Part shown: piece by piece, positions 13,362-60,995 of the stretch
Numbering within the stretch: position 1 is the stretch's first letter
Layout: every line of letters begins with the position of its first letter
NCBI GenBank assembly: GCA_964549305.1
Contig: CAZJVM010000003.1
Location: 1 to 64,000, forward strand
Direction of reading: 5' to 3'
Origin: an uncultured bacterium
GTDB taxonomy: Bacteria; Schekmanbacteria; GWA2-38-11; J061
DNA length: 64,000 bases
The notes under the pieces: model-generated
What the model was told of the DNA's origin: nothing
Seen by the model: the letters and a program-made list of their open reading frames with translations, nothing else
Database searches by the model: none
Translations under genes and position numbers: made by a program

Positions 13362-14141
13362 ATGAGGAGAAAAGGCAAAAATTCGATTCACTATTTTGAG
13401 CTTCTTGTGGCGCTTGCGAAGAAGGACCTGAAGGTGCGCTACAAAAGCGCGTCACTGGGTTTTATGTGGGCAATCCTCAATCCCCTCCTGATGATGGTCG
13501 TCCTTAGCGTGATATTCTCGCTCGTTTTCAAGGTTAAAACAGAGGCGCCTTATTCTGTCTTTGTGCTGTGCGGACTTATCCCCTGGACTTTTTTCAATTT
13601 CTCGCTTGCCTGCGCCACGAACTCCATTGTGGACAATTCGAACCTCGTTAAAAAAGTCTATTTCCCGAGAGAGATAATCCCGGTTTCGGTAATATTAGCG
13701 AATCTTTTTAATTTCTGCCTTTCACTCATAATACTTTTTATTTTTCTCATAATATTTAAAATCAAGATTACTCTGTTTTTCCTTCTGACGCCTTTTGCAG
13801 TTGTAATTCAGTTTTTCTTCATATGCGGAATGTGTCTTCTCACATCGGGACTAAATGTTTATTTCAGGGATGTTAAATATATAGTCGAGTCGGCGCTTTT
13901 ATTTCTCTTTTATCTTACTCCTGTGTTTTATCCCGTTACAATGGTGCCTGAAAGATTCAGAGAAGTCTTTCTGTTAAATCCCATGGCAGGAATTATAGTT
14001 TTCTACAGGGATATTTTTATTAACGCTCAAATGCCTTCTTTATATCTTACGGCAGTGACAACTCTTTCGTCGTTGCTCATATTTGCCGCGGGGCTTTTTG
14101 TTTTTAAGAAGTGTGAGCCCGCTTTTTCGGACCTCATTTAG
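13362..14141 (+). CDS. wzm: Polysaccharide ABC transporter permease (Wzm/TagG)
   Basis: DLKVRYKSASLGFMWAILNPL, KKVYFPR, YFRDV, TPVFYP and LNP. Confidence 0.93.
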   Translation: MRRKGKNSIHYFELLVALAKKDLKVRYKSASLGFMWAILNPLLMMVVLSVIFSLVFKVKTEAPYSVFVLCGLIPWTFFNFSLACATNSIVDNSNLVKKVYFPREIIPVSVILANLFNFCLSLIILFIFLIIFKIKITLFFLLTPFAVVIQFFFICGMCLLTSGLNVYFRDVKYIVESALLFLFYLTPVFYPVTMVPERFREVFLLNPMAGIIVFYRDIFINAQMPSLYLTAVTTLSSLLIFAAGLFVFKKCEPAFSDLI

Positions 14142-14161
14142 GATACTTTCGGGAAATAATT

Positions 14162-15556
14162 ATGAAAGTAATCGAAATAAAAGATGTAGCCAAGAAGTAC
14201 AAAATTTATCACGAGAGACCCATGCTCGTAAAGAGTCTCTTTGCAAGTCTCGGAAGAAAAAAAATAGAGGAATTCTGGGCTCTGAAAAACATAAATATGG
14301 AAGTAAACAAAGGTGAAGCGGCGGGAATAATCGGAGATAACGGCGCAGGGAAAAGCACGATGCTTAAAATATTGAGCGGCGTCACGGCGCCTTCTCAGGG
14401 GACGGTAGATGTGAGAGGCAGGATTGCCGGACTTCTTGAATTGGGCGCGGGATTCCATCCCGACCTTACGGGAAGGGAAAACGTCTTTCTAAACGGAGCA
14501 ATACTCGGTCTTACGAAAAAGGAGATAGAGGGGAAGTTTGATTCAATTGTAGAATATGCCGGAATAAAGGATTTCATCGACACGCCCCTTAGAAACTATT
14601 CATCGGGAATGTTTGTGCGTCTGGGGTTTGCCGTGGCAGTCCACGTTAATCCGGAAATCCTCCTTGTTGACGAAGTGCTTGCAGTGGGAGACCAATCTTT
14701 TCAGGCAAAATGCCTCAAGACCATAGAAAATTTCATACATGATGGCAATACTCTGGTTTTCGTTTCTCACGATTTGAACATTATCCGCCACGTATGTTCG
14801 AGAGTGGTGCTTCTCGAAAAAGGCCAAGTAGTGCTCGAGGGTGAACCGTCAAAGGTTATTTCCCGTTACTGGTTGTCCATAGGCGACAAGAAAGGAATCG
14901 GCAAGATAGAGAAGGACCGCCTGAAGGTAGTGCTTAACAACGGGCGTTTGATTCTGCTTTGGAATGATATTGAGTTAACTAAAGGCCTTTCGGGGTATAC
15001 ATCGATGCGCTCATTCGTAAAATGGTACGATTCGTCCGTTGCGCAGTGGCAAATATTGGAAGACCGCGATGATATGATTGTCGCTAAAGGAGAATGGTTT
15101 GGGCTTCCCGTTGCGCAAAAGTGGACAATAAAGTTTAATGAGGGTTTCGTTGAGTGGGACATTGATATGGAAGTGAAGTCACCGGTAGACATCCTGAAAC
15201 AGCAGGCAAATCTTATGCTTTCAGAAGATTACGGGAGATGGATTTGTGATGGTGATAACAGTGGGGGATTTCCAAAATTTCGGGAGGAAACCGATGATGA
15301 TTGGGACTGCATCTGGACTACCGAGGGCGCATCGCAGTGGATTGGCGCCTGTGGAGAAGACAATAAAAAAAATCCTATACCCACCCTTAAATTTTATCCT
15401 CAGGCAGTTACCGGTAATGAAAAAACCAACATAGTGAATTCCAATCTTTATTACAGGGGAAGGGTGCTTCAGCAGTTAAAAGAGAATGATGAAAGCAAAA
15501 AAAGATACGAGCCCGGAACTTATAAGTATTTCAGCGGAAAAATAAAGGTTGAATGA
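14162..15556 (+). CDS. wzt: Polysaccharide ABC transporter ATPase (Wzt/TagH) with ~225-aa C-terminal extension
   Basis: Walker A GDNGAGKST, YSSGM signature, DEVLAVGD and VSHD. Confidence 0.92.
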   Translation: MKVIEIKDVAKKYKIYHERPMLVKSLFASLGRKKIEEFWALKNINMEVNKGEAAGIIGDNGAGKSTMLKILSGVTAPSQGTVDVRGRIAGLLELGAGFHPDLTGRENVFLNGAILGLTKKEIEGKFDSIVEYAGIKDFIDTPLRNYSSGMFVRLGFAVAVHVNPEILLVDEVLAVGDQSFQAKCLKTIENFIHDGNTLVFVSHDLNIIRHVCSRVVLLEKGQVVLEGEPSKVISRYWLSIGDKKGIGKIEKDRLKVVLNNGRLILLWNDIELTKGLSGYTSMRSFVKWYDSSVAQWQILEDRDDMIVAKGEWFGLPVAQKWTIKFNEGFVEWDIDMEVKSPVDILKQQANLMLSEDYGRWICDGDNSGGFPKFREETDDDWDCIWTTEGASQWIGACGEDNKKNPIPTLKFYPQAVTGNEKTNIVNSNLYYRGRVLQQLKENDESKKRYEPGTYKYFSGKIKVE

Positions 15557-16685
15557 GAATATGAAAGCCGTTTTTATAGGAATAAACGGTTATGATTATC
15601 CCTATGTGAGAGTGCGATGCTATAATTTTGCAAAGGAAGTCAGCAAACACGGCATAGATGCTTCGGTGTTTTCATTCAGGGATAATTTAGCGCCGGAGTT
15701 GTCGGGAATCGAGATGCTGACGCTCGGTGATTTTAAAAAAATCACTCTCAACTTAAAAGCGGCTTTAAAGCTTGTTCAGGAAAAAAATTCTATCTTTTAT
15801 ATTCAGAAAGTCCATTATCATTCCGCCGCGCCTTACCGGTTAGCAAGAATTACGGGACGAAAATATATTCTTGACTATGATGACTGGGATCTTGACAGGT
15901 CGCCGCTTTTTAACCGTTCATATCTCAACAAGCTTTTTTTCGGCGCAGACGGCGCAGAGGTTGTAACGGGAAAAATCGCCTCAGATGCCTCTGCCTGCGT
16001 TGCATCGAGCAAATTTCTCTATGACTATCTTTCGCAGTACAACAAAAATGTTTTTTACATCCCCACGGGAGTCGATGCGGAGAGATTTAAAAGGAAAAGA
16101 GAAAGAAAAGATACAGGAGAGATAAAGATGATATGGACGGGGAATATCTGGGGAGATGTTATTTATGAGAATGTAATGTTTTTGCTAAGGTGTTTTTCAA
16201 AAGTCAAACCTTATGGCAAGAAACTCTTTTTGCGCATTGTGGCAACAGGAGAATTCTACGGAAAGGTAAAAAAAGACGCGTCGGCAATGGCATATCCGGG
16301 AGAAGTTGAATTTATAGACTGGGTTACTCCCGATGAGATGAATAAAATACTCGAAGATTCCCACATAGGACTTCTTCCTCTAATTACCGATTCTCAAAAT
16401 GAAACCTGGATGAAGAGTAAAAGTCCAACGAAGCTTTTTGAATATATGGCAATGGAAATGCCCGCCGTATCAACGAATTTCGGCGAAGCGCCTGTAATCG
16501 TAAACGACGGTGTCAACAATTTTTTAGCCGAAGATGAAGATGAATTTGTAGAAAAACTCAATATCCTTATAAAGAATGACAATTTGAGGGAAAAGATGGG
16601 GATGAATGCGAGAAGGGATGTAGAAGAGAAATACTCTCTTGCCGTTATGGGAAAAGAACTTTCCGATATTTTTAAGAAAGTGTGA
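15549..16685 (+). CDS. Glycosyltransferase family 4 (start may be ATG 15561)
   Basis: GT-B fold motifs IPTGVD, KSPTKLFEYMA and MGMNARRDVEEKYS. Confidence 0.88.
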   Translation: MNENMKAVFIGINGYDYPYVRVRCYNFAKEVSKHGIDASVFSFRDNLAPELSGIEMLTLGDFKKITLNLKAALKLVQEKNSIFYIQKVHYHSAAPYRLARITGRKYILDYDDWDLDRSPLFNRSYLNKLFFGADGAEVVTGKIASDASACVASSKFLYDYLSQYNKNVFYIPTGVDAERFKRKRERKDTGEIKMIWTGNIWGDVIYENVMFLLRCFSKVKPYGKKLFLRIVATGEFYGKVKKDASAMAYPGEVEFIDWVTPDEMNKILEDSHIGLLPLITDSQNETWMKSKSPTKLFEYMAMEMPAVSTNFGEAPVIVNDGVNNFLAEDEDEFVEKLNILIKNDNLREKMGMNARRDVEEKYSLAVMGKELSDIFKKV

Positions 16686-17857
16686 AAATGAAAATTATAT
16701 TTATAGGCCACAGCGGTTATAATTATCCTCACGTGAGGGTGCGCTGTTACAATTTTTCATCATCTCTCGCAAAGCTTGGAATGGACACTGAGGTTTTTTC
16801 CTATAAAGACCATCTGCTCTCTCCGGAATATGATGAAGAGATGATGTATTTGTTGAGCGATAAAAGAAAAATTCAGCTTAGCTTAAAGGGGATTTTTAAA
16901 CTTTTTCCCGAAAAAGATAATATTTTCTATATTCAAAAACTTCTCTTTCATTCCGTCGCGCCACTGATACTTTCAAGGATGGGGAGAAATCGCTATATTC
17001 TCGATTGTGACGACTGGGATGGTACTCACGGAGTTCTCTTTAAAACGGAATCGCTGAACCGCTTATTTTTCGGAATGGAGGGTAAAACCGATAAATACGG
17101 CAATATTGATAACGGCGATTATGAAAAAATTCTTCTTCATTACGCGAAATCAGCACTCTGCTGTGTAGCATCGAGTCATTCTCTCAAAGATATATTATCT
17201 TCCGTTAACAGCAGGACATATTATGTCCCAACGGGTGTAGATATTCAAAAATTTCATAATGACTCCCCTAAAAAAGACGATGGTACGATAACCTTTTGTT
17301 GGACAGGTGTTGTCTGGGGAGATGTCATATTTGACAACATGCTTTTTCTATTGCACTGTTTTTCAACTTTAAAACGAAAACATAAAAATATTCGTCTTAA
17401 ACTGCTCGGAGGCGGTCAGTATATGCACAGACTGAAGGAAATCGTGTCGTTGATTTACAGAGAGGATGATATTGAAATATTAGATCCTATTTCTCCCGAT
17501 GATGTCCCGAAGTTTTTAAATGAAGCGGATATCGGAGTTGTTCCCCTTGTTCAGAAAAATGACAAATGGATTAACTCTAAAAGTCCCACGAAACTTTTTG
17601 AGTTTATGTCCAGCGGGCTTCCCGTGGTGGCAAGCAGAAGCGGAGAAAACCGCTATGTGATAGAAGACGGCAGGGACGGGTTTCTCGCTTCGGGGAAAGA
17701 AGAATTTATTGAAAAAATGGAGATACTCATTACTGACTGTAAGCTTAGAAAACAGATGGGCATAAATGCGAGAGAAACTGTGATGAATAATTACTCATTG
17801 GATATTCTCGGAGAAAAATTATACGGTATAATAAACGATATTAAGGAAAATATATGA
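16682..17857 (+). CDS. Glycosyltransferase family 4, paralogue of the previous gene
   Basis: YPHVRVRCYNF, DCDDWD and KSPTKLFEFMSSGLPVV. Confidence 0.88.
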   Translation: MKMKIIFIGHSGYNYPHVRVRCYNFSSSLAKLGMDTEVFSYKDHLLSPEYDEEMMYLLSDKRKIQLSLKGIFKLFPEKDNIFYIQKLLFHSVAPLILSRMGRNRYILDCDDWDGTHGVLFKTESLNRLFFGMEGKTDKYGNIDNGDYEKILLHYAKSALCCVASSHSLKDILSSVNSRTYYVPTGVDIQKFHNDSPKKDDGTITFCWTGVVWGDVIFDNMLFLLHCFSTLKRKHKNIRLKLLGGGQYMHRLKEIVSLIYREDDIEILDPISPDDVPKFLNEADIGVVPLVQKNDKWINSKSPTKLFEFMSSGLPVVASRSGENRYVIEDGRDGFLASGKEEFIEKMEILITDCKLRKQMGINARETVMNNYSLDILGEKLYGIINDIKENI

Positions 17858-19563
17858 AAATACTTTTTATTCAGCCTCCCCTTCCGTGCAATGAAAGGCA
17901 CAAAAGGATTTTGCCACTGGGAATAGGTTATCTTTGCTCCTATTTAAGACAACAGCATCCTGAAGTTGAATTGAAAGTCCTCGACGCCCACGCCCTTAAT
18001 ATGAATTACTGTCAGGTGATAAGTGAAATTAACAAGGAAAAATGGGACATTATCGGATTTTCTTTCTGGACGGCGCAGGCACCTTTTGTCTACAACATAG
18101 TTCCTTCACTGAGAAACAGTCAGCCCGACGCATTGATTGCATTCGGAGGAGTTCATACATCTCTTTGCCCCGAAGAGTCATCTGAACATTGTGACTTTGC
18201 TGTTCTCCACGAAGGTGAAGTGACATTAGGCGAAGTTGTGGGAAAAATTCTCGGGGGGAATGACTACAAGGATGTTTCAGGAATAGCATACAGAGAAGAC
18301 GGGGAGTTTGTAAAAAATCCCATAAGGCCGCTTATTGATGTACTTGATTCACTTCCTTTTCCTGCGTGGGATTTGCTGCCCATGGAATGCTACGCAACTC
18401 CTCTTCACGTAGTTGGCGGAAAAAGGCTTCCGGTGGTCGGTTCAAGGGGATGCCCCTATAACTGCACATACTGCGTATCGCCCCTTATGTGGATGAGAAA
18501 GGTTAGATGGAGAAGCGCGGAAAATGTAATTGAGGAGATGAAAAAATCCATAACGGACCTTGGAATAAGCCAGTTTCATTTCTGGGACGACAACTTCCTT
18601 CTGAACAGAAAGTATGTAAATGAGCTTTGCGAGGGGATATTGAGGGAAAATCTGAATATTAAATGGACGGGACTCACTCGCGCCTCTCATATTCAGAAAA
18701 ACAAGGATGTTGTGGAACTTCTGGGAAGATCGGGGTGCATAGGGCTTGAAGTGGGAATCGAGAGCGCCAATCCCGAAACATTTTCTCAGATACAGAAGGA
18801 GGAGAGTCTCGTTACCATAGAGGAGATTGCAAAACTTCAGAAGGACTGCGGTATGTATCCTCTATTTACTTATATGGCTTTCAATCCCGGAGAAACGATT
18901 AACGGTTATTATATGCAGTCGCGCTTCATAGATAACCTTTTGTCAAATCTTCCGTGGCTCGAGCATTTTCATCCCCTGCCTTATCCGGTTTATATAGGAC
19001 AGTTTTCCACGGCATATCCCCGCACACAGCTAATGGAAGACGCTCCAAATCTCGGAATGGTGCTTGTAGAGAAGTGGGATGACTGTTTCCACCACAATAT
19101 AAATTTCATACCCAATTCGCTTCTCGATGATGTGCCCATTAAAACGAGAAGTCATTTAAAGCCAAACGATTATATTGTCGCCGTAAATTCTGCCTGGGCG
19201 GGTATATGGACATTCGCGTCCTATTCCCTTCCACGGTTTGAGCGCGCGCTGGAGCAATGGGAGTATGTAAAGTTTATCTCGTCCTTTTTTATAAGATGCG
19301 ACGGCAACAGCACTGTGAGAAAAATAGCCGAAGAAGTATCAGACTTCTACAATATGGATAAAAAGAAGAGTTTTCAATATGCCGCATTTTCTTCACTTGT
19401 ACTTGCCCAACTCGGACTTATCCGCTCATCACTGTACGATGAGGACCTTGAAGTCAACATAAAGGAAATAAGCGTACCAGCGGGAAAAGGGTACAAGAAA
19501 AAGATTAAAAAAGTGCTCTTTTTGATATTGATGAATATTTATTGTTTTCTTAAAAAAAGATAA
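17854..19563 (+). CDS. Cobalamin-binding radical SAM protein with C-terminal extension
   Basis: PLGIGYL, GGVH and HEGE (B12 domain); SRGCPYNCTYC, WDDNF and GIES. Confidence 0.9.
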   Translation: MKILFIQPPLPCNERHKRILPLGIGYLCSYLRQQHPEVELKVLDAHALNMNYCQVISEINKEKWDIIGFSFWTAQAPFVYNIVPSLRNSQPDALIAFGGVHTSLCPEESSEHCDFAVLHEGEVTLGEVVGKILGGNDYKDVSGIAYREDGEFVKNPIRPLIDVLDSLPFPAWDLLPMECYATPLHVVGGKRLPVVGSRGCPYNCTYCVSPLMWMRKVRWRSAENVIEEMKKSITDLGISQFHFWDDNFLLNRKYVNELCEGILRENLNIKWTGLTRASHIQKNKDVVELLGRSGCIGLEVGIESANPETFSQIQKEESLVTIEEIAKLQKDCGMYPLFTYMAFNPGETINGYYMQSRFIDNLLSNLPWLEHFHPLPYPVYIGQFSTAYPRTQLMEDAPNLGMVLVEKWDDCFHHNINFIPNSLLDDVPIKTRSHLKPNDYIVAVNSAWAGIWTFASYSLPRFERALEQWEYVKFISSFFIRCDGNSTVRKIAEEVSDFYNMDKKKSFQYAAFSSLVLAQLGLIRSSLYDEDLEVNIKEISVPAGKGYKKKIKKVLFLILMNIYCFLKKR

Positions 19564-19627
19564 AATTGCGTTTTAAATCTTCCATTGACGCCTTATATGC
19601 CGGTAAAAATCTTCTCTCGCAAGTTCA

Positions 19628-20905
19628 ATGAAAAGAATTGCATTTATAGATCTTATGTTCAGATGGCCTCCTTCGGGAGGGGCGACCACTGACCTTAAAG
19701 AAGTTATTTCCGCGCTTTCGCAGAGAGGTTATCCGCTCAAGCTTTTTATACCTGAATTTGAAGATTATCTGCCGAGAGGAAGAATTGACAAAGAGCTTTC
19801 CTTTGAAATAGAAAAAATCCCTTTCACAAAATACTCCTTTAACAGGCGTACTATGCCCGGAAGGTTTGCTTCCCGCGTTAAATCCTTTAAACCCGATATT
19901 GTTTTCATAGGCGACGGTTACAGCATCAAACCCTTTCTCCTCGGCGCTTTCAGCGACTATAAAACCATCCTGAGATTTTATGCCTATGAGGTTTTTTGCT
20001 ATACATACAATCTTATCAATGACAAAGAGGAAAACTGCGCCAACAATATTTTCCTCGATATTCACCGGTGCAAGAGATGTAAATTCCCCACCGCTCCCGC
20101 GATTAAGGGATTTTGCGATGTATATCTTAACCTTGACAGAAGCGGTGACTTTTTCAAGCTTCTGAATAATCAGGAGATTCTCGCAAGCAGAGCTTTTTCC
20201 TCTTCATATCCGGGAAAGGCAAAAAAACTCATTGGCAGGGCAACGCAGATAATAGTCTATAACGAAATGACGAAATCGCTTCTCCATGGAATAAACAGCA
20301 ATGTAAATGTCTTTCCTTCAGGTGTTGACACAAAAAAATTTGTGCCGGCGCAAAATCGGGAAGGGAAAAAGAAGAAGGTGATACTTATGCCGGGAAGGAT
20401 ATCCTTCAGGCCAAAGGGATTCCATATAATGGAGGAAGTATGTAAAATGCTTCTGGAGAAGAGAGATGATTTTATTTTTCTCTGTACAGCAGATGAAGAT
20501 ATGCAGATAAAAAAATATGATTCCCCTCTTGACAGCCACATAGTTTTTTTAAACTGGATGGATCAGTCAAACCTTCATCTCATCTATAATTCCTCTGACA
20601 TATGCGTTGTGCCCTCTACCTGGTACGAACCTTTCGGAATTACCGCCGTTGAGGCGATGTCCTGCGGAAAACCTGTAGTAGCGTCAAAAACGGGCGGACT
20701 TGCGGGCATAGTTGAGGACAATGTAACGGGATATCTTGTACCTCCCTGTGACGTGTCGGGGTTTTACGATGCTATTATGAAACTTCTCGATGATGATGAA
20801 AAGAGGGAAAATATGGGAAATGAAGGGAGAAAGCGCGCGGAGAGAATGTTTGACTGGTCGGTAATAATGGAAAACAATTATATTCCACTCATTGAAGGAA
20901 TGTAG
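19628..20905 (+). CDS. Glycosyltransferase family 4 with 4-Cys insertion
   Basis: PSGVD and PSTWYEPFGITAVEAMSCGKPVV; C-x12-C-x10-C-x2-C. Confidence 0.9.
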   Translation: MKRIAFIDLMFRWPPSGGATTDLKEVISALSQRGYPLKLFIPEFEDYLPRGRIDKELSFEIEKIPFTKYSFNRRTMPGRFASRVKSFKPDIVFIGDGYSIKPFLLGAFSDYKTILRFYAYEVFCYTYNLINDKEENCANNIFLDIHRCKRCKFPTAPAIKGFCDVYLNLDRSGDFFKLLNNQEILASRAFSSSYPGKAKKLIGRATQIIVYNEMTKSLLHGINSNVNVFPSGVDTKKFVPAQNREGKKKKVILMPGRISFRPKGFHIMEEVCKMLLEKRDDFIFLCTADEDMQIKKYDSPLDSHIVFLNWMDQSNLHLIYNSSDICVVPSTWYEPFGITAVEAMSCGKPVVASKTGGLAGIVEDNVTGYLVPPCDVSGFYDAIMKLLDDDEKRENMGNEGRKRAERMFDWSVIMENNYIPLIEGM

Positions 20906-20913
20906 CGGAGAAT

Positions 20914-22191
20914 ATGAAAAAGATAGCTTTTATAGATTTGCTTTTTCACTGGCCCGTAAGCGGAGGGTCGTGGAATGATTTCTACAATGTCGCATCGATG
21001 CTTCACAAAAGAGGGTATGGAGTAAAGCTTTTTGTACCCGATTTTCCGGATTATTTTCCGAGAGGACGGATTTTGGAAGATTTTCCTCTGGAGATAGAAC
21101 GAATTCCCTTCAGCAAATATTCCTTTAATTTTTTCAACATGCCTCGCGAGTTTTTGCGCCGCGTGGAAGAATATAATCCGGATTATGTTTTTATGGGAGA
21201 CGGATATTTCCTGAAACCCTATCTTATAAAAGCGCTTTCAAAATGGCCCCTGTTTCTGCGTTTCTACTCCTATGAACTTATATGCTTCAACAACAAGCTA
21301 TTTTTCGCTGACAGGGAAGTTTGCGCGAATACGGTTTTTAAGGATGCCGGCAAATGCATCTCCTGCAGATTCAGAAATGCGAATATGTTCAAACAGCTTA
21401 TAAAGATTATTCTTGATTATAAAGTCGATGAGTATCCTTTCAGCAGAGTGATGTTCCATTTTTCACAAGAATATCTTTCGGCAATGGCTTTCAGGGATTC
21501 CTACAGGAAAATTCTCGCGGAAAGCATATCTGAGGCATCTTCCGTCATAGTCTATAACGATTACATCAGGGATATTCTCGTAAAATACAATAATGATGTG
21601 AAGGTTATTCCTTCAGGTGTCGATACTGAAAAGTTCAGTCCACCGAAAAAAAGAAAAAAAGGGGATAAGAAGAAAATACTCATGTCCGGACGCGTCGCTG
21701 AATACGCAAAAGGTTTGACGGTGCTCGAAAATGCCTTCAAACTATTGCTTTCAAAACGGGACGATATAATTTTGGAGCTTACTACGGATGACTATTTCAG
21801 GAGTTTTGAAAACCGTTTTCAGGGTGAAAATTTCATCCTTAAAAAATGGGTTAATCAGGATAATCTTCCCTCCCTTTACAAGGATGCCGATATTGTCGTT
21901 GTGCCGTCAATATGGATGGAACCTTTCGGAATAGTCGCTTTGGAAGCAATGGCATCGGGAGTGCCCGTTATCGCGTCGCAAATCGGAGGATTGCAGAATA
22001 TTGTAATTGACGGGAAAACGGGATTTCTCTTTGAACCGGGAAACGTTAAAGAATTAATGGACAAAATGGAAAATCTTTTGGATAATCAATCACTTCGTGA
22101 GACTATGGGTGATAATGGCAGAAAAAGGGCGCTGGCCCTTTACAGCTGGGATAAAATCGTGGACAATTACTATGTTCCGCTCTTTTCATAG
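20914..22191 (+). CDS. Glycosyltransferase family 4 with 4-Cys insertion, paralogue of the previous gene
   Basis: PSIWMEPFGIVALEAMASGVPVI; same Cys spacing and MKKIAFIDL N-terminus. Confidence 0.9.
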   Translation: MKKIAFIDLLFHWPVSGGSWNDFYNVASMLHKRGYGVKLFVPDFPDYFPRGRILEDFPLEIERIPFSKYSFNFFNMPREFLRRVEEYNPDYVFMGDGYFLKPYLIKALSKWPLFLRFYSYELICFNNKLFFADREVCANTVFKDAGKCISCRFRNANMFKQLIKIILDYKVDEYPFSRVMFHFSQEYLSAMAFRDSYRKILAESISEASSVIVYNDYIRDILVKYNNDVKVIPSGVDTEKFSPPKKRKKGDKKKILMSGRVAEYAKGLTVLENAFKLLLSKRDDIILELTTDDYFRSFENRFQGENFILKKWVNQDNLPSLYKDADIVVVPSIWMEPFGIVALEAMASGVPVIASQIGGLQNIVIDGKTGFLFEPGNVKELMDKMENLLDNQSLRETMGDNGRKRALALYSWDKIVDNYYVPLFS

Positions 22192-22202
22192 GGAGAAATA
22201 AT

Positions 22203-52943: not shown

Positions 52944-52949
52944 AACAGA

Positions 52950-54353
52950 TTATCCGAACCACTTTTTTTCCGTTGCCGTTCGAAGGTCTGATTTTTTTCC
53001 CTTGATTATATCCTCTGCCACATTGAGTCCCATTTCAACGGAATGGTCCATATTGTTGTATCTGAAAAGTGCGTTTCTTCCGAAATAGTGAAGATTGTCA
53101 AATCCCTCGAGATAGTCTTTTATTACCGTTACGTGTTGACGGTAGTATATGTCATAAATGGGATAGGCGTGTTTAAGCTTGCAGAGAAAATAGCTTTCCA
53201 CATCATTTTCACCTATCAGACCCATTTGCACAAGGTCTTCCGTTACTCTGTCAACGATTCTCTCATCATTCATATTCCAGATTCTGTCTCCGAAAAAGCA
53301 GGTGACTTCGGCGCATATAATTGTCTTTCTCGGGGGCGCGGAGTTTTCGTTGAAATTTTTGAACTCAGAAAACCGGTTGCTTATAAATTTTCTCTCGGGC
53401 ATATAAATCCAGTGATTTGCACTCAAACGCGGTCTGTTAACAACAAGATAGACAAAAACGATTGAGCGGAAAAAAAGCTCTGAGCAGGACTGTTTGATTT
53501 TCCCTTCGGGTTCGGGTGTTATGAGAGAAACAAGGTCTGTAAGGGGGATAGTTGAACAGAAATAATCGTATTCTTCCTTTTTAGGCGATGAGCCGTTTTC
53601 ATAAGAAATTGAGAGAATTCTATTCTTGTCTGTTTCAATCTCTTTCACTTCAGCGCCCGTAATAACCTTGTTTCCCATAGCAAGTATTTTCTCTCTGTAT
53701 TTTTCGCATATCGTCCCTATCCCGCCGTTTTCAGGATAGGAAAATTCAGAGACATAGGTGCGGGGAATATTTTTGGGTCTAAAAAGCGTTTTCATTATCA
53801 CATCTGTGAGATTGAGCAGAGTTATCCTCTGTGAGGCATAATCCGCGGATATTTCCGTACAGGCGAGTCCCCAGGTTTTTTCCGTATATTCCTTGAAAAA
53901 AATTTCATAAAGCTTGTTGCCGAATCTCTTGCTTACCCAGTTTTCAAATGAATTGTCGGGAATGGACTGTAATATTATTTTGGCATAAACATAGTCATAG
54001 AAAATTTTAAGAAGTGTAAAGAAGGGCATCTTGGAAATGACATCCATTGCGCTTAAAGGGTAGATGAAATATCTGTTTTTAAGATATATTTCACTTTTTC
54101 TGATTTTCTTGACGGTTTTGTCGTCAAGGACTTCTCTTATATGGTCAACAAGCTCTTTTTTTTCTGAATGAAACCTGTGGGGTCCAAGGTCGCAGGTGAA
54201 TTCGCCCTTTTTGAAACTTCGCGCGAGACCTCCCACATAATCTTCTTTTTCGATGACAGTAACGTCAAACCCCGCTTTGGAAAGTTCATACGCGCAGGTC
54301 AATCCCGCGAGCCCGGCGCCTAAAACAGCAACTTTTCTGTTTCTTTTATCCAT
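52950..54353 (-). CDS. FAD-dependent oxidoreductase, UDP-galactopyranose-mutase-like
   Basis: GAGLAGL, DLGPHRF, YTEKTWG, AYP and GRNALFRYNNMDHS. Confidence 0.8.
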   Translation of the reverse strand: MDKRNRKVAVLGAGLAGLTCAYELSKAGFDVTVIEKEDYVGGLARSFKKGEFTCDLGPHRFHSEKKELVDHIREVLDDKTVKKIRKSEIYLKNRYFIYPLSAMDVISKMPFFTLLKIFYDYVYAKIILQSIPDNSFENWVSKRFGNKLYEIFFKEYTEKTWGLACTEISADYASQRITLLNLTDVIMKTLFRPKNIPRTYVSEFSYPENGGIGTICEKYREKILAMGNKVITGAEVKEIETDKNRILSISYENGSSPKKEEYDYFCSTIPLTDLVSLITPEPEGKIKQSCSELFFRSIVFVYLVVNRPRLSANHWIYMPERKFISNRFSEFKNFNENSAPPRKTIICAEVTCFFGDRIWNMNDERIVDRVTEDLVQMGLIGENDVESYFLCKLKHAYPIYDIYYRQHVTVIKDYLEGFDNLHYFGRNALFRYNNMDHSVEMGLNVAEDIIKGKKSDLRTATEKKWFG

Positions 54354-54489
54354 TTTGAGTTAATATAACAGATATAATAACTTCAGCAAAACTTTACTTT
54401 TAGAAAAATTATTTCGACAATAATCACTAATTTTTCAATGATATTTTTAGTTTGCCGATTGTGTTGTTTTTTAAAAAGGTAAAATCCCA

Positions 54490-55242
54490 ATGGAAAAAGA
54501 TGTTTATTCCGAGTTTCTGAATCTCGAAAAAAATCACTGGTGGTTTCTTGGAAGAAGAAGCATTTTCTTTAGCCTTTTGGATAAATTTTTGGACGGCAGA
54601 AAAGATTTGAATATAATCGACGTGGGATGCGGTCCGGGGGAGATGATTGAACCCCTTGAAAAATACGGTAATGTAACTGCCTGTGATATCACATTCGATG
54701 CCCTTGATTTTTGTTCGGAAAGGGGTTTCAACCTGCTTATGCTTGCAGACGGAAGCAGACTTCCCGTTAAGGATGAAAGTTATGACCTTCTCTCCCTCTT
54801 CGATACACTTGAGCATATCGACGATGATGTGTCAGTCCTCAGGGACTCATACCGTGTGCTCAAAGACGGTGCATTCGTGATTATAACGCTTCCCGCGTAT
54901 AATTTTCTTTTCAGCAATAACGACCGCGCGGCACATCATAAAAGGCGTTACAGCGCCGGCGAGATAAGCAGAAAGGCGCAGGTTGCCGGATTTAATGTAA
55001 GAAAGGTTACCTATATCAATACATTTCTTTTCCCGGTGATTTTTTCTGCGCTAATTTTGATAAAAATAAAGGAAGCTATTTTTCCTGTTGCAAATCCGGA
55101 TAAAACGAATATTTCTTTTTCGGTTCCCCAAATAATTAACAGCATACTGGCATCTATTTTTTGTTTTGAAAGCAGGATTCTCAAGAATATATCATTTCCA
55201 TTCGGACATTCTCTCGTATGCATAGCGCAAAAGAAAAAATAA
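54490..55242 (+). CDS. Class I SAM-dependent methyltransferase
   Basis: HWWFLGRR, DVGCGPG, DTLEH and HHKRRY. Confidence 0.9.
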   Translation: MEKDVYSEFLNLEKNHWWFLGRRSIFFSLLDKFLDGRKDLNIIDVGCGPGEMIEPLEKYGNVTACDITFDALDFCSERGFNLLMLADGSRLPVKDESYDLLSLFDTLEHIDDDVSVLRDSYRVLKDGAFVIITLPAYNFLFSNNDRAAHHKRRYSAGEISRKAQVAGFNVRKVTYINTFLFPVIFSALILIKIKEAIFPVANPDKTNISFSVPQIINSILASIFCFESRILKNISFPFGHSLVCIAQKKK

Positions 55243-56729
55243 TACTTTTTCATCCTCGAACCGCTTTTTCCTCCACCGGTTCCATCGTGCCTCTTCATCT
55301 TCTTGCGGTGTGCAGGCATTTGGACAGCCAAAAATTCGATGTGCTCATAATAAACGGTGAAATGGAGCACGACTACAGGGAAAAGCTCAAAGAGCATTGC
55401 AAGGATGCCCTGTGCATCGGCATCGGATTTATGACCGGATATCAGATTAAACAGGCAATCGAGGCATCTAAGATTGCCCGTGATGTTAACCCGGGCATAA
55501 GGGTTATATGGGGCGGATGGCATCCCTCTGTTTCAACTGAGCAGACTCTCGAACATCCCCTCGCTGACATATTAGTGCGTGGACAGGGAGATGTTGTTTT
55601 CTCCGAACTTGTAAACGCGATTTCCGAAGGAAGGGATATTTCCGCCATAAAGGGACTTGCTTTCAGGAAAAACGGTGCGATAACAATAACCGATGATAAT
55701 TATCTCGAAGATTTAAAATCGTTCGATTCTCTGCCTTTCCAACTTCTTCCTCTCAACGATTATATCAGGGGGACGCGCCTCGGACTTAGAAATATTCATT
55801 ACTACTCAAGTCAGGGGTGTCCGTTCAGATGTTCGTTCTGTGCCGATTCCCTTGTTAACAAAAGAAGGTGGGTAAGCATCTCAAATGAACAGTTTATCGA
55901 AGATGTGAAATTTCTCAGGAAAGAATGCAATATAGATTCGGCAACGGTCATAGACAGTAATTTTTTCGTTGATATGAAAAGAATCAGAGGGCTTGCAGAC
56001 CTTCTTGTGAAAGAAAATCTTGGCGTAAAGTATGGCGGTTTGAACGGTCGCGCGGCACAGTTGAAAAAAATTGAAACTTCCGAATGGAAGCATTTTTCAG
56101 AAGCGGGATTCAAAGAACTTTTCGTCGGTGTGGAATCCGCTCTTCAGGAACAGCTGAATTTCATAAAAAAGGATACGAAGGCGACTGATGTACTCGAACT
56201 GGCAGACAACTTAAAGGGTGTTGATATAAGTCTCACTTTTTCTCTTATAATGGGACTGCCAGGGTCTTCAGAGAGAATGAATGATATATCCGCCGACCTT
56301 GACAGGGAACTTGAAAGCGCTTTATCTCTTACGAAAAAGGTATTCGAGGCAAACCCAGGCGCAACTGCCTGGTTTTTCCTCTATACTCCCTATCCCGGGA
56401 CTCCGCTTTTTGACAGAAGTGTTGAAAACGGTTTCAAAAAGCCCGTAAGTCTCGAAGAATGGGAGGGGATGGACCTTGGAAACATAAACATACCGTGGAT
56501 TTCAAAGACATTCGCAAACAAAGTTTCCTTCTTCACGGAATTCATTTTCTATTTTTTGCTGGAGGAAAGGTTGAATAATTTTCTGAAAAGCAAAGGTTCC
56601 GTCATGAAAAAAGTTATTTATATCATTTTGCATAACCTTGCCAGATTCAGATGGAAAACCGGTTTTTTCTCATTGCGATTTGAGAATTCCCTTGTTAAAT
56701 TCCTTAGAAAGTTGTCAGGGGGAGTTTAA
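55218..56729 (+). CDS. Cobalamin-binding radical SAM protein
   Basis: WGGWHPS, GQGD, SQGCPFRCSFC, DSNFF, GVES and PYPGT. Confidence 0.9.
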   Translation: MHSAKEKIILFHPRTAFSSTGSIVPLHLLAVCRHLDSQKFDVLIINGEMEHDYREKLKEHCKDALCIGIGFMTGYQIKQAIEASKIARDVNPGIRVIWGGWHPSVSTEQTLEHPLADILVRGQGDVVFSELVNAISEGRDISAIKGLAFRKNGAITITDDNYLEDLKSFDSLPFQLLPLNDYIRGTRLGLRNIHYYSSQGCPFRCSFCADSLVNKRRWVSISNEQFIEDVKFLRKECNIDSATVIDSNFFVDMKRIRGLADLLVKENLGVKYGGLNGRAAQLKKIETSEWKHFSEAGFKELFVGVESALQEQLNFIKKDTKATDVLELADNLKGVDISLTFSLIMGLPGSSERMNDISADLDRELESALSLTKKVFEANPGATAWFFLYTPYPGTPLFDRSVENGFKKPVSLEEWEGMDLGNINIPWISKTFANKVSFFTEFIFYFLLEERLNNFLKSKGSVMKKVIYIILHNLARFRWKTGFFSLRFENSLVKFLRKLSGGV

Positions 56730-56761: not shown

Positions 56762-57817
56762 TTACGCTTTATGCAAATAGCTTTTGTCGTATTCCATAAG
56801 AATATGAGCGGATGTTTTGATTTTTTCCGACAACGACATTTCCTCAGGTATGGACTTGCCCGTAAGTTTTCTCAGAAGTTTCGATGCTCTTTTCATCTCA
56901 TCACCGCCTTTTACGCAGTTTTTAAGGATTTCTTCTGCAGTTTCAAAAAAAAGCGATGTTGAATTAACGGCAAGATTTGCTCTTTTGCGGGTTTTTAAAT
57001 TGTAACTTACATACCTGATATAATCATTCACTTTAAAACCACGATTAATTTTTCCCGAGAGTAAATCAAGAAATTTTTCAGTTGTCTCTTTTGCTTCAGA
57101 AATCGGGTAATGCCCCGCGTAATCCCCTTCAAATCTTGAAGCAATTGCGTCGCGGAGAAATCGAGAAAATTCTGAGCTTATTTCCCTTTCATACTCTAAT
57201 GCCTTTTCAGAACATTTTTTAAGACTGTAAAAGTTTTTCCACTCTCCGTAGGAGGCATTGTTTTCTTTAAAGAATAAAAATGCCTGAAATGCCTGAATTG
57301 CCGATTTTTCAAAATAGGGCATTCCGGAGTCGCCTTCGCTTATTCCCTTGATTAAAAATTTATAGGCCCGTTTCAGGTTATTTACCGGTTCCGGAGTCTT
57401 CATCTTATCAAGCGTTCTGTCGAGACCGTTCTCTTTTTTTAAAGTTTTTCCCGCAAGTGTGGTGAGATGAAATTTCAGAGCTTTATCCCAAACAATGATA
57501 AATTCGATATCTCTGATAACATTTATCCTTGATTTTAATTGGGCAAGGAGATGGTTTTTCCGCGCGGAAATGCTTTGCCATAAGGAATCGAAGACAAGAA
57601 AGATATCTACATCGCTTGAAACTTCGCTTTTCCGGTTTTTCTCGATGGTTTTTCCCTCTGCGTAACAAAGACTTCCTCCGAGAATAATCGAGCATTTAGG
57701 GAATTCAGAGGATATTGATTCAACTAATGATTCAATTTCTTTCTTAATTTCATTGTTTAAGGGATTTTCTTTATCAATGAGAAATGTTTCGGATTGAATC
57801 AATTTGCTTTCAGTCAT
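56762..57817 (-). CDS. Hypothetical protein with pol-beta-type nucleotidyltransferase motif
   Basis: IILGGS...SDVDIFLV (hG[GS]...DhD) followed by a helical C-terminal region. Confidence 0.55.
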   Translation of the reverse strand: MTESKLIQSETFLIDKENPLNNEIKKEIESLVESISSEFPKCSIILGGSLCYAEGKTIEKNRKSEVSSDVDIFLVFDSLWQSISARKNHLLAQLKSRINVIRDIEFIIVWDKALKFHLTTLAGKTLKKENGLDRTLDKMKTPEPVNNLKRAYKFLIKGISEGDSGMPYFEKSAIQAFQAFLFFKENNASYGEWKNFYSLKKCSEKALEYEREISSEFSRFLRDAIASRFEGDYAGHYPISEAKETTEKFLDLLSGKINRGFKVNDYIRYVSYNLKTRKRANLAVNSTSLFFETAEEILKNCVKGGDEMKRASKLLRKLTGKSIPEEMSLSEKIKTSAHILMEYDKSYLHKA

Positions 57818-57917
57818 AAGGTAAATGCCTTGATAAAATATTATGCCTTTATTATAGAAATTATACCGTGTTAATGAAATAATAATGACAATAATAAATT
57901 AAAAAAGAGAGATAATT

Positions 57918-59066
57918 ATGTCTTCGAAAGTATCCCTTGTATCGTGTGCCGAATATGAAAAGGAAAAAGTTGATTCAGCGGTAAAGGAAGCAGTAGGCCT
58001 TTTAGGCGGAATCGAAAAATTCGTATCAGGCGGAAACAGGGTGCTTATCAAGCCGAATCTCCTTTCGGGAAAACCTCCGGAAAAAGCCGTAACAACCCAT
58101 CCTATGGTGCTTGCCGCGGTAATTGATTTGGTAAGGGAGGCGGGAGGCATTCCCGTAGTTGGAGACAGTCCGGCAACGGAAGGCAAGGGAAGTCTCGAGA
58201 AATTCAAAAAGGTTTGCGAAATCACCGGCATTCTCGATGTCGTTGAAAAGAAAGAGGTCGAACTTGCCCATTTCAGCTCATCGAGAATCGAAATCGAAAA
58301 CCCCGAAGGGAAAATATTTAAGAAATTTACTGTTACCGAAGAGATTAAAAAATGTGATGTCCTTATTAATCTTTGTAAGCTCAAGACGCACGGACTGACG
58401 CTTCTCACGGGGGCGGTGAAGAACCTTTTCGGATGCGTGCCGGGGCTTTTAAAGGGACAGCTTCATATGCGCGCCCCCCACAGGCCCGAGTTTTCACAGA
58501 TGCTCGTTGACCTTTATCAGGTTGTAAAGCCCTCGATTAATATAATGGACGCCGTTGTGGGAATGGACGGCAACGGTCCCGGAAACGGAAACCCGAGAAA
58601 AGTGGGGGCAGTCATAGCAAGTATCGATGCAGTCGCGCTGGATTCCGTTGCCTGCCAGATAATCGGAAAAAGCCCCTATGCCCTCGACACATGCAAAATT
58701 GGGGAATCACAGGGAATAGGTGTCGCGAATCCCCATGAGATAGAAGTGCTTGGAGACGATGTGGGAAAATTTTTAGTATCGGACTATGAAGTGCTTGTAG
58801 ATGATGTTACGGACAAACCACTTATGAGGTTTATTATCGCGCTTATGCGTGAGAGGACAACGGCTAAACCGGTAGTTGACAAGAAGAAATGTACAGGGTG
58901 TAAAACCTGCCACGTTGCCTGCGTGCCGGAGGCGATAACTATGGCCGATGGCTATCCGGTGATGGATTACGATAAATGTATAAAATGTTACTGTTGTCAC
59001 GAAGTTTGTCCCGAAGGAGCAATCAACCTTAAAAAAGGGCTTCTTTACAGGCTGCTTTCAAGATAA
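57918..59066 (+). CDS. DUF362-domain protein with C-terminal 2x[4Fe-4S] ferredoxin
   Basis: VLIKPN, TTHP, KLKTH and GAVKNLFG; CTGCKTC...C and CIKCYCC...CP. Confidence 0.88.
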   Translation: MSSKVSLVSCAEYEKEKVDSAVKEAVGLLGGIEKFVSGGNRVLIKPNLLSGKPPEKAVTTHPMVLAAVIDLVREAGGIPVVGDSPATEGKGSLEKFKKVCEITGILDVVEKKEVELAHFSSSRIEIENPEGKIFKKFTVTEEIKKCDVLINLCKLKTHGLTLLTGAVKNLFGCVPGLLKGQLHMRAPHRPEFSQMLVDLYQVVKPSINIMDAVVGMDGNGPGNGNPRKVGAVIASIDAVALDSVACQIIGKSPYALDTCKIGESQGIGVANPHEIEVLGDDVGKFLVSDYEVLVDDVTDKPLMRFIIALMRERTTAKPVVDKKKCTGCKTCHVACVPEAITMADGYPVMDYDKCIKCYCCHEVCPEGAINLKKGLLYRLLSR

Positions 59067-59081
59067 AGAGAGAGAAAAGAA

Positions 59082-60995
59082 TTGTCGTCTAAAGACAGCA
59101 GAGCGTATCTTGCCGCAATATTCCTCATCTTTGTTTTTCATTTTGTCTGTGCCGCCGGATTTTTTTCCAATGTGGATATAGATTCAGGATTTCCCGTATT
59201 GAATGACGATTACTCCATTCATTTCGGCCACGTGGACCCTGTAAAGGAATTCTTCAGGGACAGTTTCAGGTTGTGGGGATATGACCCTTTTTATATGGCG
59301 GGATTGCCTAAGTCCACGGTTTTTGACGCAGACGCAAAGTCGCCGGAAATAATAGGTGTTATCTTTTCTTTTGCCGATTCGGCAACGGTTTACAATATCT
59401 ATATCTTTCTGAATTACATTCTTGCTCCTCTGCTTTTTCTCTGGTCGATTTTCAATTTCGGATTAAGAAGATGGGGGCTTGCCACGGGATTTGCCGCAGG
59501 CGTATTTTACTGGTGGGCATATCCGGCATTCAGGTTCAATCTCGCGGGACAATTCGCATTCATCTTCGTATCTCATATTACATTGCTTATATTTTCTCTC
59601 TTTTACCGTTATGTGGATTCCGGTAAATTCCGCTTCATAGCGCTTTGCGGTGTAATCGGAGCTATTGCCCTTTCGGTACACATCCTTGCGCCCATAAACA
59701 TCGCGGTGGGGTCGCTCATCCTTTATGCAGTTGCCTTTAAAAAAATGAGCGGGAAACAACACGCGGGGCTTTTTGCCTGCCTTGCTTTTATTCTCATTGC
59801 GAACAGCCCCTGGGTGATACCTTTTATACGTTTCTACGGAATGAATAATCTTGCTGATATCGACTGGTTTTTCGGCGCCACCAATCCTTTCTTTTTTCTC
59901 GAAGCGTATTTTCCCGGAGGGGCAATCTACAGATATCTTCGCCTCGCTATTTTGATTGCCTCGATTGGCGGTTTTATGAAATGGAAAAAAGAAAAAAATA
60001 TCCTCTTTTATCCCGTGCTCGGCAACGCGCTCATACTTTTTATCTATTCATACTTCGGCGCCTATTCAACGCTTACATTTCTGCAAAATCCATGGCGCTA
60101 CGAATTTGAACTGAATCTTTTTCTCCTTGCCCCGGCGGCAGTTTATCTGAATTCACTTTTTGAAAAGAACGGTTTCAGCAGAAAAATTTTACCTCTTGCC
60201 GTTTCCCTCTTCCTCATTGTCTGCCTTTTTCCGCTAAATGCTTTTAAGTCAGCAAAACGTCTCATTCCCCGTTACAGAAATGAAAGAATTGTAAAATATG
60301 ACCGTCTCACCCCTTTGAAAAACGGAGAGGTGGAGTATTCATACGAGGAACTTCCTCACTCATCGCTTCCTCCTGCGGGGTATGAGTTTATTGAATGGAT
60401 TAAACGGAATACCACAAAAGATGCGCGGATAATGCTTGAAGATTCCTGCTGGCAGTCTCGTCACGCCTATTGGGGTTCGCATCTTCCGGCAATGCTTCCA
60501 ACGCTCACCGGAAGGGAATATATCGGCGGGCCAATCCCACAGTATTTTATGGTGCACCATTATGCGAGTTTTCAGGACGGTTTTTTCTGCGGCAAGTATC
60601 TCGATGAATACGACGAAGAAGAATTCCTTGAAAAGACAGATCTCTATAACATCAAGTGGATAGTTGCCTTTACGCCCTACTCGAGAAATTTTCTGGAAAA
60701 AATTCCGGAAAGAGTTCACCTTATTGACAGGGTTGATAAATTCTATCTTTACGAGATTACGCGAAAGCAGGATTTTTTCCTCGAGGGAAGGGGAGAGATA
60801 AAATCCGCTTACAATCACCTTTATCTTTCAGGGCTTTCCGAAGGCGAGGATATAATAATCAAATATCACTGGATAAAAACGCTTAAAACATCGCCTCCGA
60901 GAAAGTTAAGCGAATTTAAAATAAAGGATGACCCTGTGGGCTTTATAAAGGTTGAGAATGTTCCCTCTGAGATTGAAATCTATAACGGATATTAA
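59082..60995 (+). CDS. Polytopic membrane protein, probable GT-C/YfhO-like
   Basis: NDDY, WGYDPFYMAG, PW and PWRY; multiple TMs then a soluble domain. Confidence 0.55.
   Translation: MSSKDSRAYLAAIFLIFVFHFVCAAGFFSNVDIDSGFPVLNDDYSIHFGHVDPVKEFFRDSFRLWGYDPFYMAGLPKSTVFDADAKSPEIIGVIFSFADSATVYNIYIFLNYILAPLLFLWSIFNFGLRRWGLATGFAAGVFYWWAYPAFRFNLAGQFAFIFVSHITLLIFSLFYRYVDSGKFRFIALCGVIGAIALSVHILAPINIAVGSLILYAVAFKKMSGKQHAGLFACLAFILIANSPWVIPFIRFYGMNNLADIDWFFGATNPFFFLEAYFPGGAIYRYLRLAILIASIGGFMKWKKEKNILFYPVLGNALILFIYSYFGAYSTLTFLQNPWRYEFELNLFLLAPAAVYLNSLFEKNGFSRKILPLAVSLFLIVCLFPLNAFKSAKRLIPRYRNERIVKYDRLTPLKNGEVEYSYEELPHSSLPPAGYEFIEWIKRNTTKDARIMLEDSCWQSRHAYWGSHLPAMLPTLTGREYIGGPIPQYFMVHHYASFQDGFFCGKYLDEYDEEEFLEKTDLYNIKWIVAFTPYSRNFLEKIPERVHLIDRVDKFYLYEITRKQDFFLEGRGEIKSAYNHLYLSGLSEGEDIIIKYHWIKTLKTSPPRKLSEFKIKDDPVGFIKVENVPSEIEIYNGY

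Follow-up and report, generated by a model that had tools for sequence, protein, structure and literature searches.

In O-antigen export by ATP-binding cassette (ABC) transporters, the carbohydrate-binding domain of Wzt reads the methyl cap (PMC9445017). The reviews consulted place radical S-adenosylmethionine (SAM) sugar chemistry in antibiotic pathways and in two glycolipids, those of HpnJ and calditol synthase; ring contraction of lipid-borne sugars has been proposed for both enzymes (PMC13459092). AprD4 does not bind cobalamin, a hydrophobic lower face is linked to radical methylation, and the largest B12-dependent groups among the radical SAM enzymes (rSAMs) are unexplored (PMC12931638). 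The cobalamin motifs are G-x-S-x-(N/R/Y), GG and GE (PMC9204698). Here we describe a putative surface-glycan locus of an uncultured bacterium of Candidatus Schekmanbacteria, in which the ABC exporter Wzm/Wzt is encoded together with glycosyltransferases (GTs) and rSAMs. It lies at positions 13362-60995 of a stretch of 64,000 nucleotides (the window; contig CAZJVM010000003.1 of GCA_964549305.1, here C3:1-64000) of a 2.94-Mb genome (G000), and for two of its rSAMs the nearest homologues with a name, at 73% and 86% identity, come from Candidatus Schekmanbacteria.

The locus encodes eight rSAMs, named RS1 (17854), RS2 (22203), RS3 (27494), RS4 (51513), RS5 (55218), TW1 (32417), TW2 (43389) and TW3 (46036) after their start positions. 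Two elements mark the system: an unannotated domain at the C-terminus of Wzt, here called X, and RS2. We propose, with a probability of about 0.6, that a lipid-linked glycan is edited by radical chemistry, exported after being read by X and decorated by periplasmic GT-C proteins. The analysis suggests an undescribed form of ABC-dependent glycan assembly with radical editing of the exported sugar chain. No description of a Wzt-X/RS2 system was found in the open literature, subscription journals being mostly outside the search; publications holding "radical SAM", "wzm" and "wzt" together mention them, in their accessible text, in unrelated places, and the accessible part of an Omnitrophota preprint mentions neither "Wzt" nor "SPASM".

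Like the E. coli O9a WbdD and Aquifex WzmWzt systems (PMC9445017), the locus has a wzm-wzt operon with GTs, an extra C-terminal domain on Wzt and adjacent modifying enzymes. Unlike in those systems, X is not Wzt_C (PF14524), can be repeated up to five times in tandem and is also found on modifying enzymes, and the modifiers of the window are rSAMs, not an O-methyltransferase or kinase. RS2 shares with HpnJ (TIGR03471, bacteriohopanetetrol cyclitol ether) the N-terminal A-x-S-R-W-P, W-P-Q and F-D-D-D-T-F-N motifs, but is only ~30% identical to it, belongs to a separate subclade, has a wzm/wzt context and comes from a genome without hopanoid cyclase. AprD4 (PDB 6FD2), a radical SAM 1,2-diol dehydratase acting on paromamine, is the top fold and sequence match of RS2, but the identity is 22%, AprD4 belongs to an antibiotic pathway and no AprD3-type reductase adjoins RS2, while related loci have an RmlD-like reductase. 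The Rossmann domain and GG of the cobalamin-dependent radical methylases that act on sugars (GenK, MoeK5, GenD1; PMC9204698) are present in RS1, RS3, RS4 and RS5, and GxSxW and GE also in RS1; unlike those methylases, the four score below every curated family cut-off and have an envelope context. The GT2 gene (48847), the flippase gene (44607) and up to six GT-C genes resemble three-component periplasmic glycosylation (PMC11127046), but are interleaved with twitch and B12-type rSAM genes, and the word "radical" is absent from the main text of that paper.

Core operon

The preliminary description of this DNA, made from its letters, had claimed eight rSAM genes in ~48 kb, and all eight open reading frames (ORFs) are indeed found at the starts given and are intact, each with the CxxxCxxC motif and a match to Radical_SAM (PF04055). 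Five of them had been called B12-binding: RS1, RS3, RS4 and RS5 pass the PF02310 cut-off, but RS2 reaches only 24.7 of the 32.1 bits required, although PF02310 is precomputed on most of its homologues. The assignment of the other three as twitch/SPASM enzymes agrees with PF13186 matches at the C-termini of TW1, TW2 and TW3. None of the eight reaches an NCBIfam cut-off. Pfam or NCBIfam further confirm Wzm/Wzt, six GT4, one GT2, one flippase, two methyltransferases, two FAD oxidoreductases, two sulfatase-fold proteins and one MBOAT in the window. There are also six GT-C candidates, of which the one at 23665 passes Pfam PMT_2, those at 39910 and 30210 match GT-C models below cut-off, and those at 25167, 41844 and 59082 are assigned solely by HHalign (probability 91, 87 and 73%) against a profile built from PMT_2 matches of the same genome.

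Positions 13362-30207 form a single co-directional run of ~17 kb on the plus strand with gaps of at most 64 bp. As previously stated, it opens with wzm (13362-14141, ABC-2 permease, PF01061) and wzt (14162-15556, ABC ATPase, PF00005, no Wzt_C), which are 60-83% and 57-79% identical, respectively, in all four relatives. They are followed by the paralogous pair GT4a (15549-16685) and GT4b (16682-17857), which match PF00534/PF13692 and keep their order in the four relatives, by RS1 (17854-19563), which has PF02310, PF04055 and a C-terminal extension, and by the second paralogous pair, GT4c (19628-20905) and GT4d (20914-22191). Next are RS2 (22203-23660), GT-C1 (23665-25167, PMT_2 family, PF13231, ATG at 23665), the candidate GT-C2 (25167-27467, no Pfam match), RS3 (27494-28885, 67-73% identity in G001 and G004) and, as the last gene, the FAD oxidoreductase FAD1 (28897-30207), a member of the PRK07233 family that scores above the NF005560 cut-off. 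GT4c and GT4d, directly upstream of RS2, have a common four-cysteine insert, C-x12-C-x10-C-x2-C, a possible metal or Fe-S site.

The comparison within the phylum covers five genomes (G000-G004), of which G004 represents a sister genus. The order wzm-wzt(X)-GT4a-GT4b-RS1 is present in all five, the contig of G002 stopping 61 residues into RS1. The run reaches RS2-GT-C1 in four of them (G000, G004, G001 and, over two contigs, G003), and RS3-FAD1 comes next in the core of G000, G004 and G001.

Domain X of Wzt

Domain X comprises residues 245-463 of Wzt (14894-15550, plus strand, ~215 aa). It matches no Pfam family, and none of 21 X copies matches PF14524 at E values up to 1, while the PF14524 model does match another Wzt, in locus L097, and a PDB sequence search with X gives nothing better than E 0.049. 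In an iterated search of the fetched loci, Wzt carries as many as five copies of X in tandem. Of 80 metagenome loci, 7 encode a fusion of X with an RS2 orthologue, and two of these 7 have the same layout. Each of the five genomes of the phylum has one copy, in a Wzt-sized ORF.

The X profile finds 678 representatives among 1.84 billion sequences. The best 150, a selection that favours multi-copy proteins, comprise 90 ABC+X proteins, 42 of X only, 8 GT-C+X, 5 X+twitch rSAM, 2 single chains of ABC-X-twitch, 1 RS2-X-twitch-X and 2 other B12-type fusions. In one locus, a gene encoding an X-methyltransferase fusion follows a Wzt-X gene. The X copies on GT-C proteins place the domain probably on both sides of the membrane, to judge from predicted topology, which fits a glycan binder. 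The ESM Atlas features of X lead first to unnamed clusters and from there to apionate lactonase and GH123, in both cases to the N-terminal domain, and serve as a lead only. Aromatic residues conserved in the X alignment include W44, W52, W77 and Y113. X is the strongest link of the system to glycan and is, by analogy and context, a putative, mobile glycan-binding domain. A complex prediction of RS2 with X scores 0.01 and counts neither for nor against an interaction. Very long X ORFs also occur, such as G171:C60:3492-13859 (4452 aa, 14 listed tandem copies) and G159:C178:30244-37620 (2746 aa, 10 copies).

RS2 and its predicted chemistry

The preliminary description held that the rSAMs are tied to glycan genes, and the homologues bear this out by conserved linkage and fusions to GTs and Wzm/Wzt. 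Among 120 listed matches to RS2, 6 are fusions with GT2, and RS2 orthologues are also fused to X or GT4. The metagenome search gave 80 loci, 44 of them with RS2 orthologues at 41% identity or more, and neighbouring GTs were detected by profiles made from Pfam matches of the G000 genome. When 11 orthologue loci with less than 3 kb of flank are dropped, a GT or Wzm/Wzt lies within 5 kb in 28 of 33 informative loci (GT in 22, Wzm/Wzt in 10), against 7 of 25 informative loci, none with Wzm/Wzt, among 30 distant ones, where 10 of 14 tested are true HpnJ. A Pfam scan of 68 selected neighbours adds nucleotide-sugar epimerases, a DegT aminotransferase, an O-antigen ligase domain and a flippase. RS2 is quite likely to have the exported glycan, or the donors for it, as substrate.

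RS2 scores 254.3 bits against TIGR03471 (cut-off 577.6), as do six homologues at 254-290, while ten true HpnJ proteins reach 740-770; against the AprD4-type family NF033070 it scores 120 bits (cut-off 500). In a quick-search tree of 86 rows, with SH-aLRT support and no bootstrap, RS2 orthologues form a clade (SH-aLRT 95) within a 42-row clade that includes HpnJ (SH-aLRT 100), apart from RS1, RS3, RS4 and RS5. The structure model of RS2 (pLDDT 92.7) has the overall AprD4-type fold, N-terminal Rossmann-like domain included, and matches AprD4 with Z 35.6 and a root-mean-square deviation of 3.2 over 427 aligned residues; OxsB (Z 28.7), CysS and MgmA are well below. At the site of the first cobalamin motif, RS2 has V-x-E-x-S, with Glu85 in 40 of 40 sequences and Ser87 and Thr88 invariant; GG is replaced by CG and GE is kept.

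The grouping with HpnJ, the AprD4-like fold and the altered cobalamin motif indicate that RS2 is probably not a methylase, and sequence and model favour a non-methylating sugar-radical reaction. If so, an AprD4-like dehydration to a keto-deoxy sugar may be the first candidate, an HpnJ-like ring contraction comes close behind it as a tentative second, and some other reaction is less likely than either. A hopanoid role was rejected, as RS2 misses the HpnJ cut-off and no squalene-hopene cyclase (PF13243) was found in G000, which is 100% complete by markers in 169 contigs, in a search whose control matched 2 of 14. The identities BchE, HpnP/HpnR-type, PhpK/Sden_1168, BzaD, MiaB/RimO and RiPP methylase were likewise rejected for the window rSAMs, with best scores of 120-254 bits against cut-offs of 481-578 (HpnP itself is not among the matches listed). 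In the hidden Markov model search that the preliminary description had called for, no curated non-glycan family, such as BchE or tRNA modifiers, takes in any of the eight.

AprD3 is the reductase partner of AprD4. A cassette that may recall this pair occurs in L132:444-5034 and L138:2-4496, with similar lengths in L141, and encodes a flippase or Wzt, a GT (PF13524), an RS2-related rSAM (34-36% identity) and an RmlD-like reductase. It is a small, tractable setting for radical deoxysugar formation.

The other radical SAM enzymes

RS1 has all three cobalamin motifs (GxSxW, GG and GE), and its Trp72, present in 39 of 40 sequences, occupies the position of OxsB Asn186 and TsrM Arg69. The search gave 241 homologue matches, with GT2 fusions in 2 of 120 among the matches listed. 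A scan of genome contigs with the RS1 alignment found one true orthologue among the 78 loci listed, the others being generic B12-type rSAMs; these have a GT within 5 kb in 33 of the 73 informative loci listed, which is not evidence on the orthologue. By its motifs, RS1 is more readily seen as a cobalamin-dependent C-methylase than as another enzyme. The GG motif and PF02310 are present in RS1, RS3, RS4 and RS5. The downstream motif is AxSxT in RS4, and GxQxF in RS3 and GxGxM in RS5, both without Ser; RS5 has GQ for GE.

RS3 and RS4 homologues were searched in the 201 genomes of the phylum of genome G009. RS4 homologues are present in 8 of them, and all eight fetched regions have a GT2, GT-C or Wzm gene nearby. 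Two RS4 homologues of 38-39% identity lie between wzm and wzt, in L230:4606-8100 and L235:2-2500. RS3 homologues are present in 7 genomes. RS3 and FAD1 are paired again in G009 (56% and 37%) and on contig C35 of the window genome, but four of the fetched RS3 loci give no GT match. In the same phylum, TW2 is matched at E 1e-45 in one of 201 genomes, adjoining a GT4.

BtrN represents the twitch rSAM type of sugar/cyclitol dehydrogenase. It is the best PDB match of TW3, and of TW3 only, over ~70 residues of the twitch domain (E 3e-10); the PDB sequence search gives no close solved relatives of TW1 and TW2. Longer forms of TW1 are three multi-rSAM polyproteins only, with no GT fusion. TW1 scores 59.7 against the anaerobic sulfatase maturase family TIGR03942 (cut-off 349.45), and both neighbouring sulfatase-fold proteins have T-x-P-S, with Thr at the nucleophile position instead of the formylglycine Cys/Ser, so TW1 is not their maturase and this role was rejected. 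Thr in this position is also a feature of LtaS/EptA-type phosphotransferases.

X and RS2 in Omnitrophota

Among 201 Omnitrophota genomes, X is present in 32, RS2 in 27 and both in 26. RS2 occurs in 26 of 32 X-positive and in 1 of 169 X-negative genomes, a co-occurrence that is inflated by the relatedness of the genomes and by the frequent X-RS2 fusions, and in none of the 37 that have canonical Wzt_C but lack X. Twenty of the 32 X loci were fetched, favouring long contigs, as stretches that end at 20 kb. All have Wzt-X, 17 have RS2 (two of the other three stop at a contig edge) and 11 encode an X-RS2 fusion. The 20 loci together contain 126 rSAM domains (89 twitch-like and 37 B12-type; the motif is intact in 122), whereas GT2/GT4 domains number 39. 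A search of the 201 genomes for RS1, in a set with no positive control, found none. Beside these rSAM-heavy loci, the window represents a GT-rich, single-X subtype.

Outside the five Schekmanbacteria genomes, RS1 and RS2 orthologues occur together in L100, with GT4a/d-like genes, and in L104, with a GT2 fusion. Polyproteins of three or four rSAM domains follow Wzt-X in L182, L183, L188, L199, L200 and L114, where an FAD oxidoreductase of ~430 aa is often upstream of wzm.

Outer part of the locus

On the minus strand, TW1 (32417-33529) overlaps GT-C3 (30210-32438), a pair present in G004 at 60% and 52% identity. The following low-GC insert (33671 to ~39700; GC 34.6% against 41.4% in the genome) encodes the two membrane-anchored sulfatase-fold proteins (minus) and the MBOAT with an unannotated partner (plus). 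The MBOAT gene (37365-38801) has a paralogue 78% identical on contig C44, which, with its low-GC setting, suggests recent duplication or acquisition. GT-C4 (39910-41841) and the candidate GT-C5 (41844-43361), on the plus strand, are supported by matches to NF047440 and GT87 below cut-off and by HHalign against the PMT_2 profile. The minus-strand operon at 43389-49824 encodes GT2 (48847, polyprenyl-phosphate sugar synthase-like), GT4e, a methyltransferase, TW3 (46036), the flippase (44607) and TW2 (43389), and is followed by GT4f (50248-51378, minus, 61% identity in G004). A variable block (51513-56729) contains RS4 (51513-52943, plus), the FAD oxidoreductase FAD2 (52950-54353, minus), a methyltransferase (54490-55242, plus) and RS5 (55218-56729, plus). 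At the right border (56762-60995), an ORF (minus), DUF362/ferredoxin (plus) and the candidate GT-C6 (plus) are common to G004.

G004 has both borders of the locus, oppBC on the left and DUF362-GT-C6-gdhA on the right, over ~75 kb. It keeps TW1-GT-C3 and the GT2-GT4e-methyltransferase-TW3-flippase operon, with a different twitch gene in the TW2 slot. Orthologues of TW2, RS4, RS5, FAD2 and MBOAT were not found in the G004 locus (best 26-27% or none), which carries other rSAM, epimerase and aminotransferase genes in their place; within the phylum, no RS5 orthologue exceeds 33% identity. The G004 locus retains five of the eight rSAMs, and G001 keeps the core only. The ~48-kb region is split over at least nine convergent or divergent transcription units. 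It is a mosaic: RS1-RS3 belong to a conserved core, two twitch enzymes to a part kept at family level, and the remaining three rSAMs are missing from the locus of the sister genus. The genes encode two or more routes of assembly, among them ABC export and periplasmic addition by GT2, flippase and GT-C.

Radical SAM genes across the genome

The G000 genome has 67 rSAM (20 B12-type), 43 GT4, 35 GT2 and 30 PMT_2 matches. From this density, 1.1 rSAMs are expected in 47.6 kb, where eight are found (Poisson P ~2e-5). A GT lies within 3 kb of 12 of 20 B12-type rSAMs (8 of 15 outside the window) and of 7 of 15 SPASM/twitch enzymes, against 3 of 32 other rSAMs and 16% of random positions. The coupling to GT, GT-C, flippase or methyltransferase genes, earlier described as tight for most rSAMs of the window, is not equally tight for all eight: the nearest Pfam GT match to RS5 is ~5 kb away. 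Elsewhere, contig C40 (~8900-12400) has a second wzm-wzt directly followed by a B12-type rSAM, on contig C26 (2700-33900) five rSAM genes are interspersed with genes for GT2, GT-C and sulfatase-fold proteins, and contig C35 (10700-14900) has FAD2-like, RS3-like and FAD1-like genes followed by membrane and GT-C genes.

Proposed pathway and rival explanations

In the proposed pathway, GT4a-d, by family and operon, would extend a lipid-linked surface glycan at the cytoplasmic face. RS2 would make the signature non-methylating radical edit on this glycan or its sugar donors, RS1 would C-methylate the glycan or donors, and RS3 would catalyse a reaction coupled to the flavoprotein encoded beside it. 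Domain X would bind the edited unit and so license export by Wzm/Wzt, like methyl-cap reading in O-antigen exporters. GT2, the flippase and the GT-C proteins would attach side sugars outside the membrane, and the twitch enzymes with RS4 and RS5 may be exchangeable tailoring units for side-sugar donors or other envelope glycans.

Several points weigh against this pathway. X has no solved relative, its carbohydrate link comes from context and from ESM Atlas leads of families that disagree, and its co-occurrence with RS2 is inflated as described. The position of RS2 comes from a quick-search tree only; its CG does not exclude cobalamin, since OxsB has one Gly at the GG site, and the non-methylating enzymes lack clear distinguishing structural features (PMC12931638). 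The RS1 model (pLDDT 93.1) ties between OxsB, AprD4, TsrM and TokK (Z 25-27), and RS3 homologues are found in rSAM arrays or in loci with no GT match (L211, L213, L215, L216). In G002, the RS2 copy (38%) is away from wzt, adjoining a GT4 on another contig. No initiating phosphoglycosyl transferase, and neither a ligase nor a final acceptor, is annotated in the window, the rest of the genome not having been searched.

The preliminary description read the 48 kb as one pathway, with all eight rSAMs tailoring a single ABC-exported glycan. The borders common to G004 and the five rSAMs kept there agree with such a unit, but the division into transcription units, the low-GC insert, the absence of TW2, RS4, RS5 and FAD2 from the G004 locus, the core-only version of G001 and the paralogues of RS4, RS3 and TW2 in other GT clusters of the genome make it very unlikely. 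Its idea of a radical-modified, ABC-exported glycan survives in part: linkage and fusions to GTs and Wzm/Wzt support it, but RS2 is AprD4/HpnJ-like rather than cobalamin-methylase-like and a second route is present. That the rSAMs have simply accumulated in a variable island of envelope genes, in an anaerobe rich in such enzymes, and have no glycan substrate is the least probable explanation of all; the number of rSAM genes in the genome and the lack of an RS5 orthologue in relatives would suit it, but B12-type rSAMs outside the window also lie near GTs, and the fusions with GT2, GT4, X and Wzt, together with synteny, largely refute it for RS1-RS4.

The rSAMs could instead make or modify a lipid or small aglycone, such as an HpnJ- or calditol-like glycolipid head group, X being an enzyme-docking scaffold on the exporter. 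HpnJ, the nearest characterised kin of RS2, acts on a glycolipid (PMC13459092), a polyprenyl synthetase adjoins one RS2 locus (L097), and standalone X genes lie between wzt and RS2 in L180, L199 and L200. Against these stand the missing hopanoid cyclase, the four GT4s encoded in one operon with Wzm/Wzt, and the X copies at GT-C C-termini, which by predicted topology are probably extracytoplasmic and away from Wzt, so that we consider this reading unlikely. The Omnitrophota loci, where rSAM domains outnumber GT2/GT4 domains 126 to 39 and the 20 kb fetched of five loci contain 8-12 rSAM domains but neither GT2 nor GT4, raise the further idea that rSAMs themselves build polymer linkages by radical C-C or ether coupling, giving a partly glycosidic product. 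We know of no precedent for polymer linkages built in this way, and the core of the window has four GT4s to three rSAMs; as the fetched stretches end at 20 kb and the GT profiles are home-built, this idea appears improbable. Editing of a glycan that is then read by X and exported remains the preferred reading. A broader version of it is doubtful: that Wzt-X/RS2 is a distinct class of envelope-polymer pathway of anaerobes, in which rSAMs, more than decorating now and then, write the export signal, X is a new carbohydrate-binding module family selecting the radical-edited unit, and, in Omnitrophota versions where GTs are few and twitch enzymes number at least ten, rSAMs form carbocyclic units or non-glycosidic linkages of the polymer.

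Other features of the window

The ORF at 56762-57817 (minus) encodes a soluble protein of 351 aa with no convincing family match, which is 39% identical to the gene in the same place in G004. An intergenic element at ~50100-50256 has copies 78-86% identical on eight other contigs (C33, C31, C12, C36, C70, C38, C30 and C29). At 5307-9892, an mreBCD operon is headed by a PilM/GspL fusion and a GspM-like gene, in the same order as in G004. No tRNA genes were found in the window.

Biological significance

The locus offers the RS1 and RS2 families and domain X a substrate class, namely nucleotide- or lipid-linked sugars for ABC export. The Schekmanbacteria core, with three rSAMs, four GTs and one X, is the simplest version found and therefore the best for reconstitution. 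If the proposed pathway is true, anaerobes of several uncultured phyla would bear surface glycans with C-methylated, deoxygenated or ring-contracted sugars, which would be misread by standard glycan analysis, and their enzymes would provide new catalysts for site-selective sugar chemistry.

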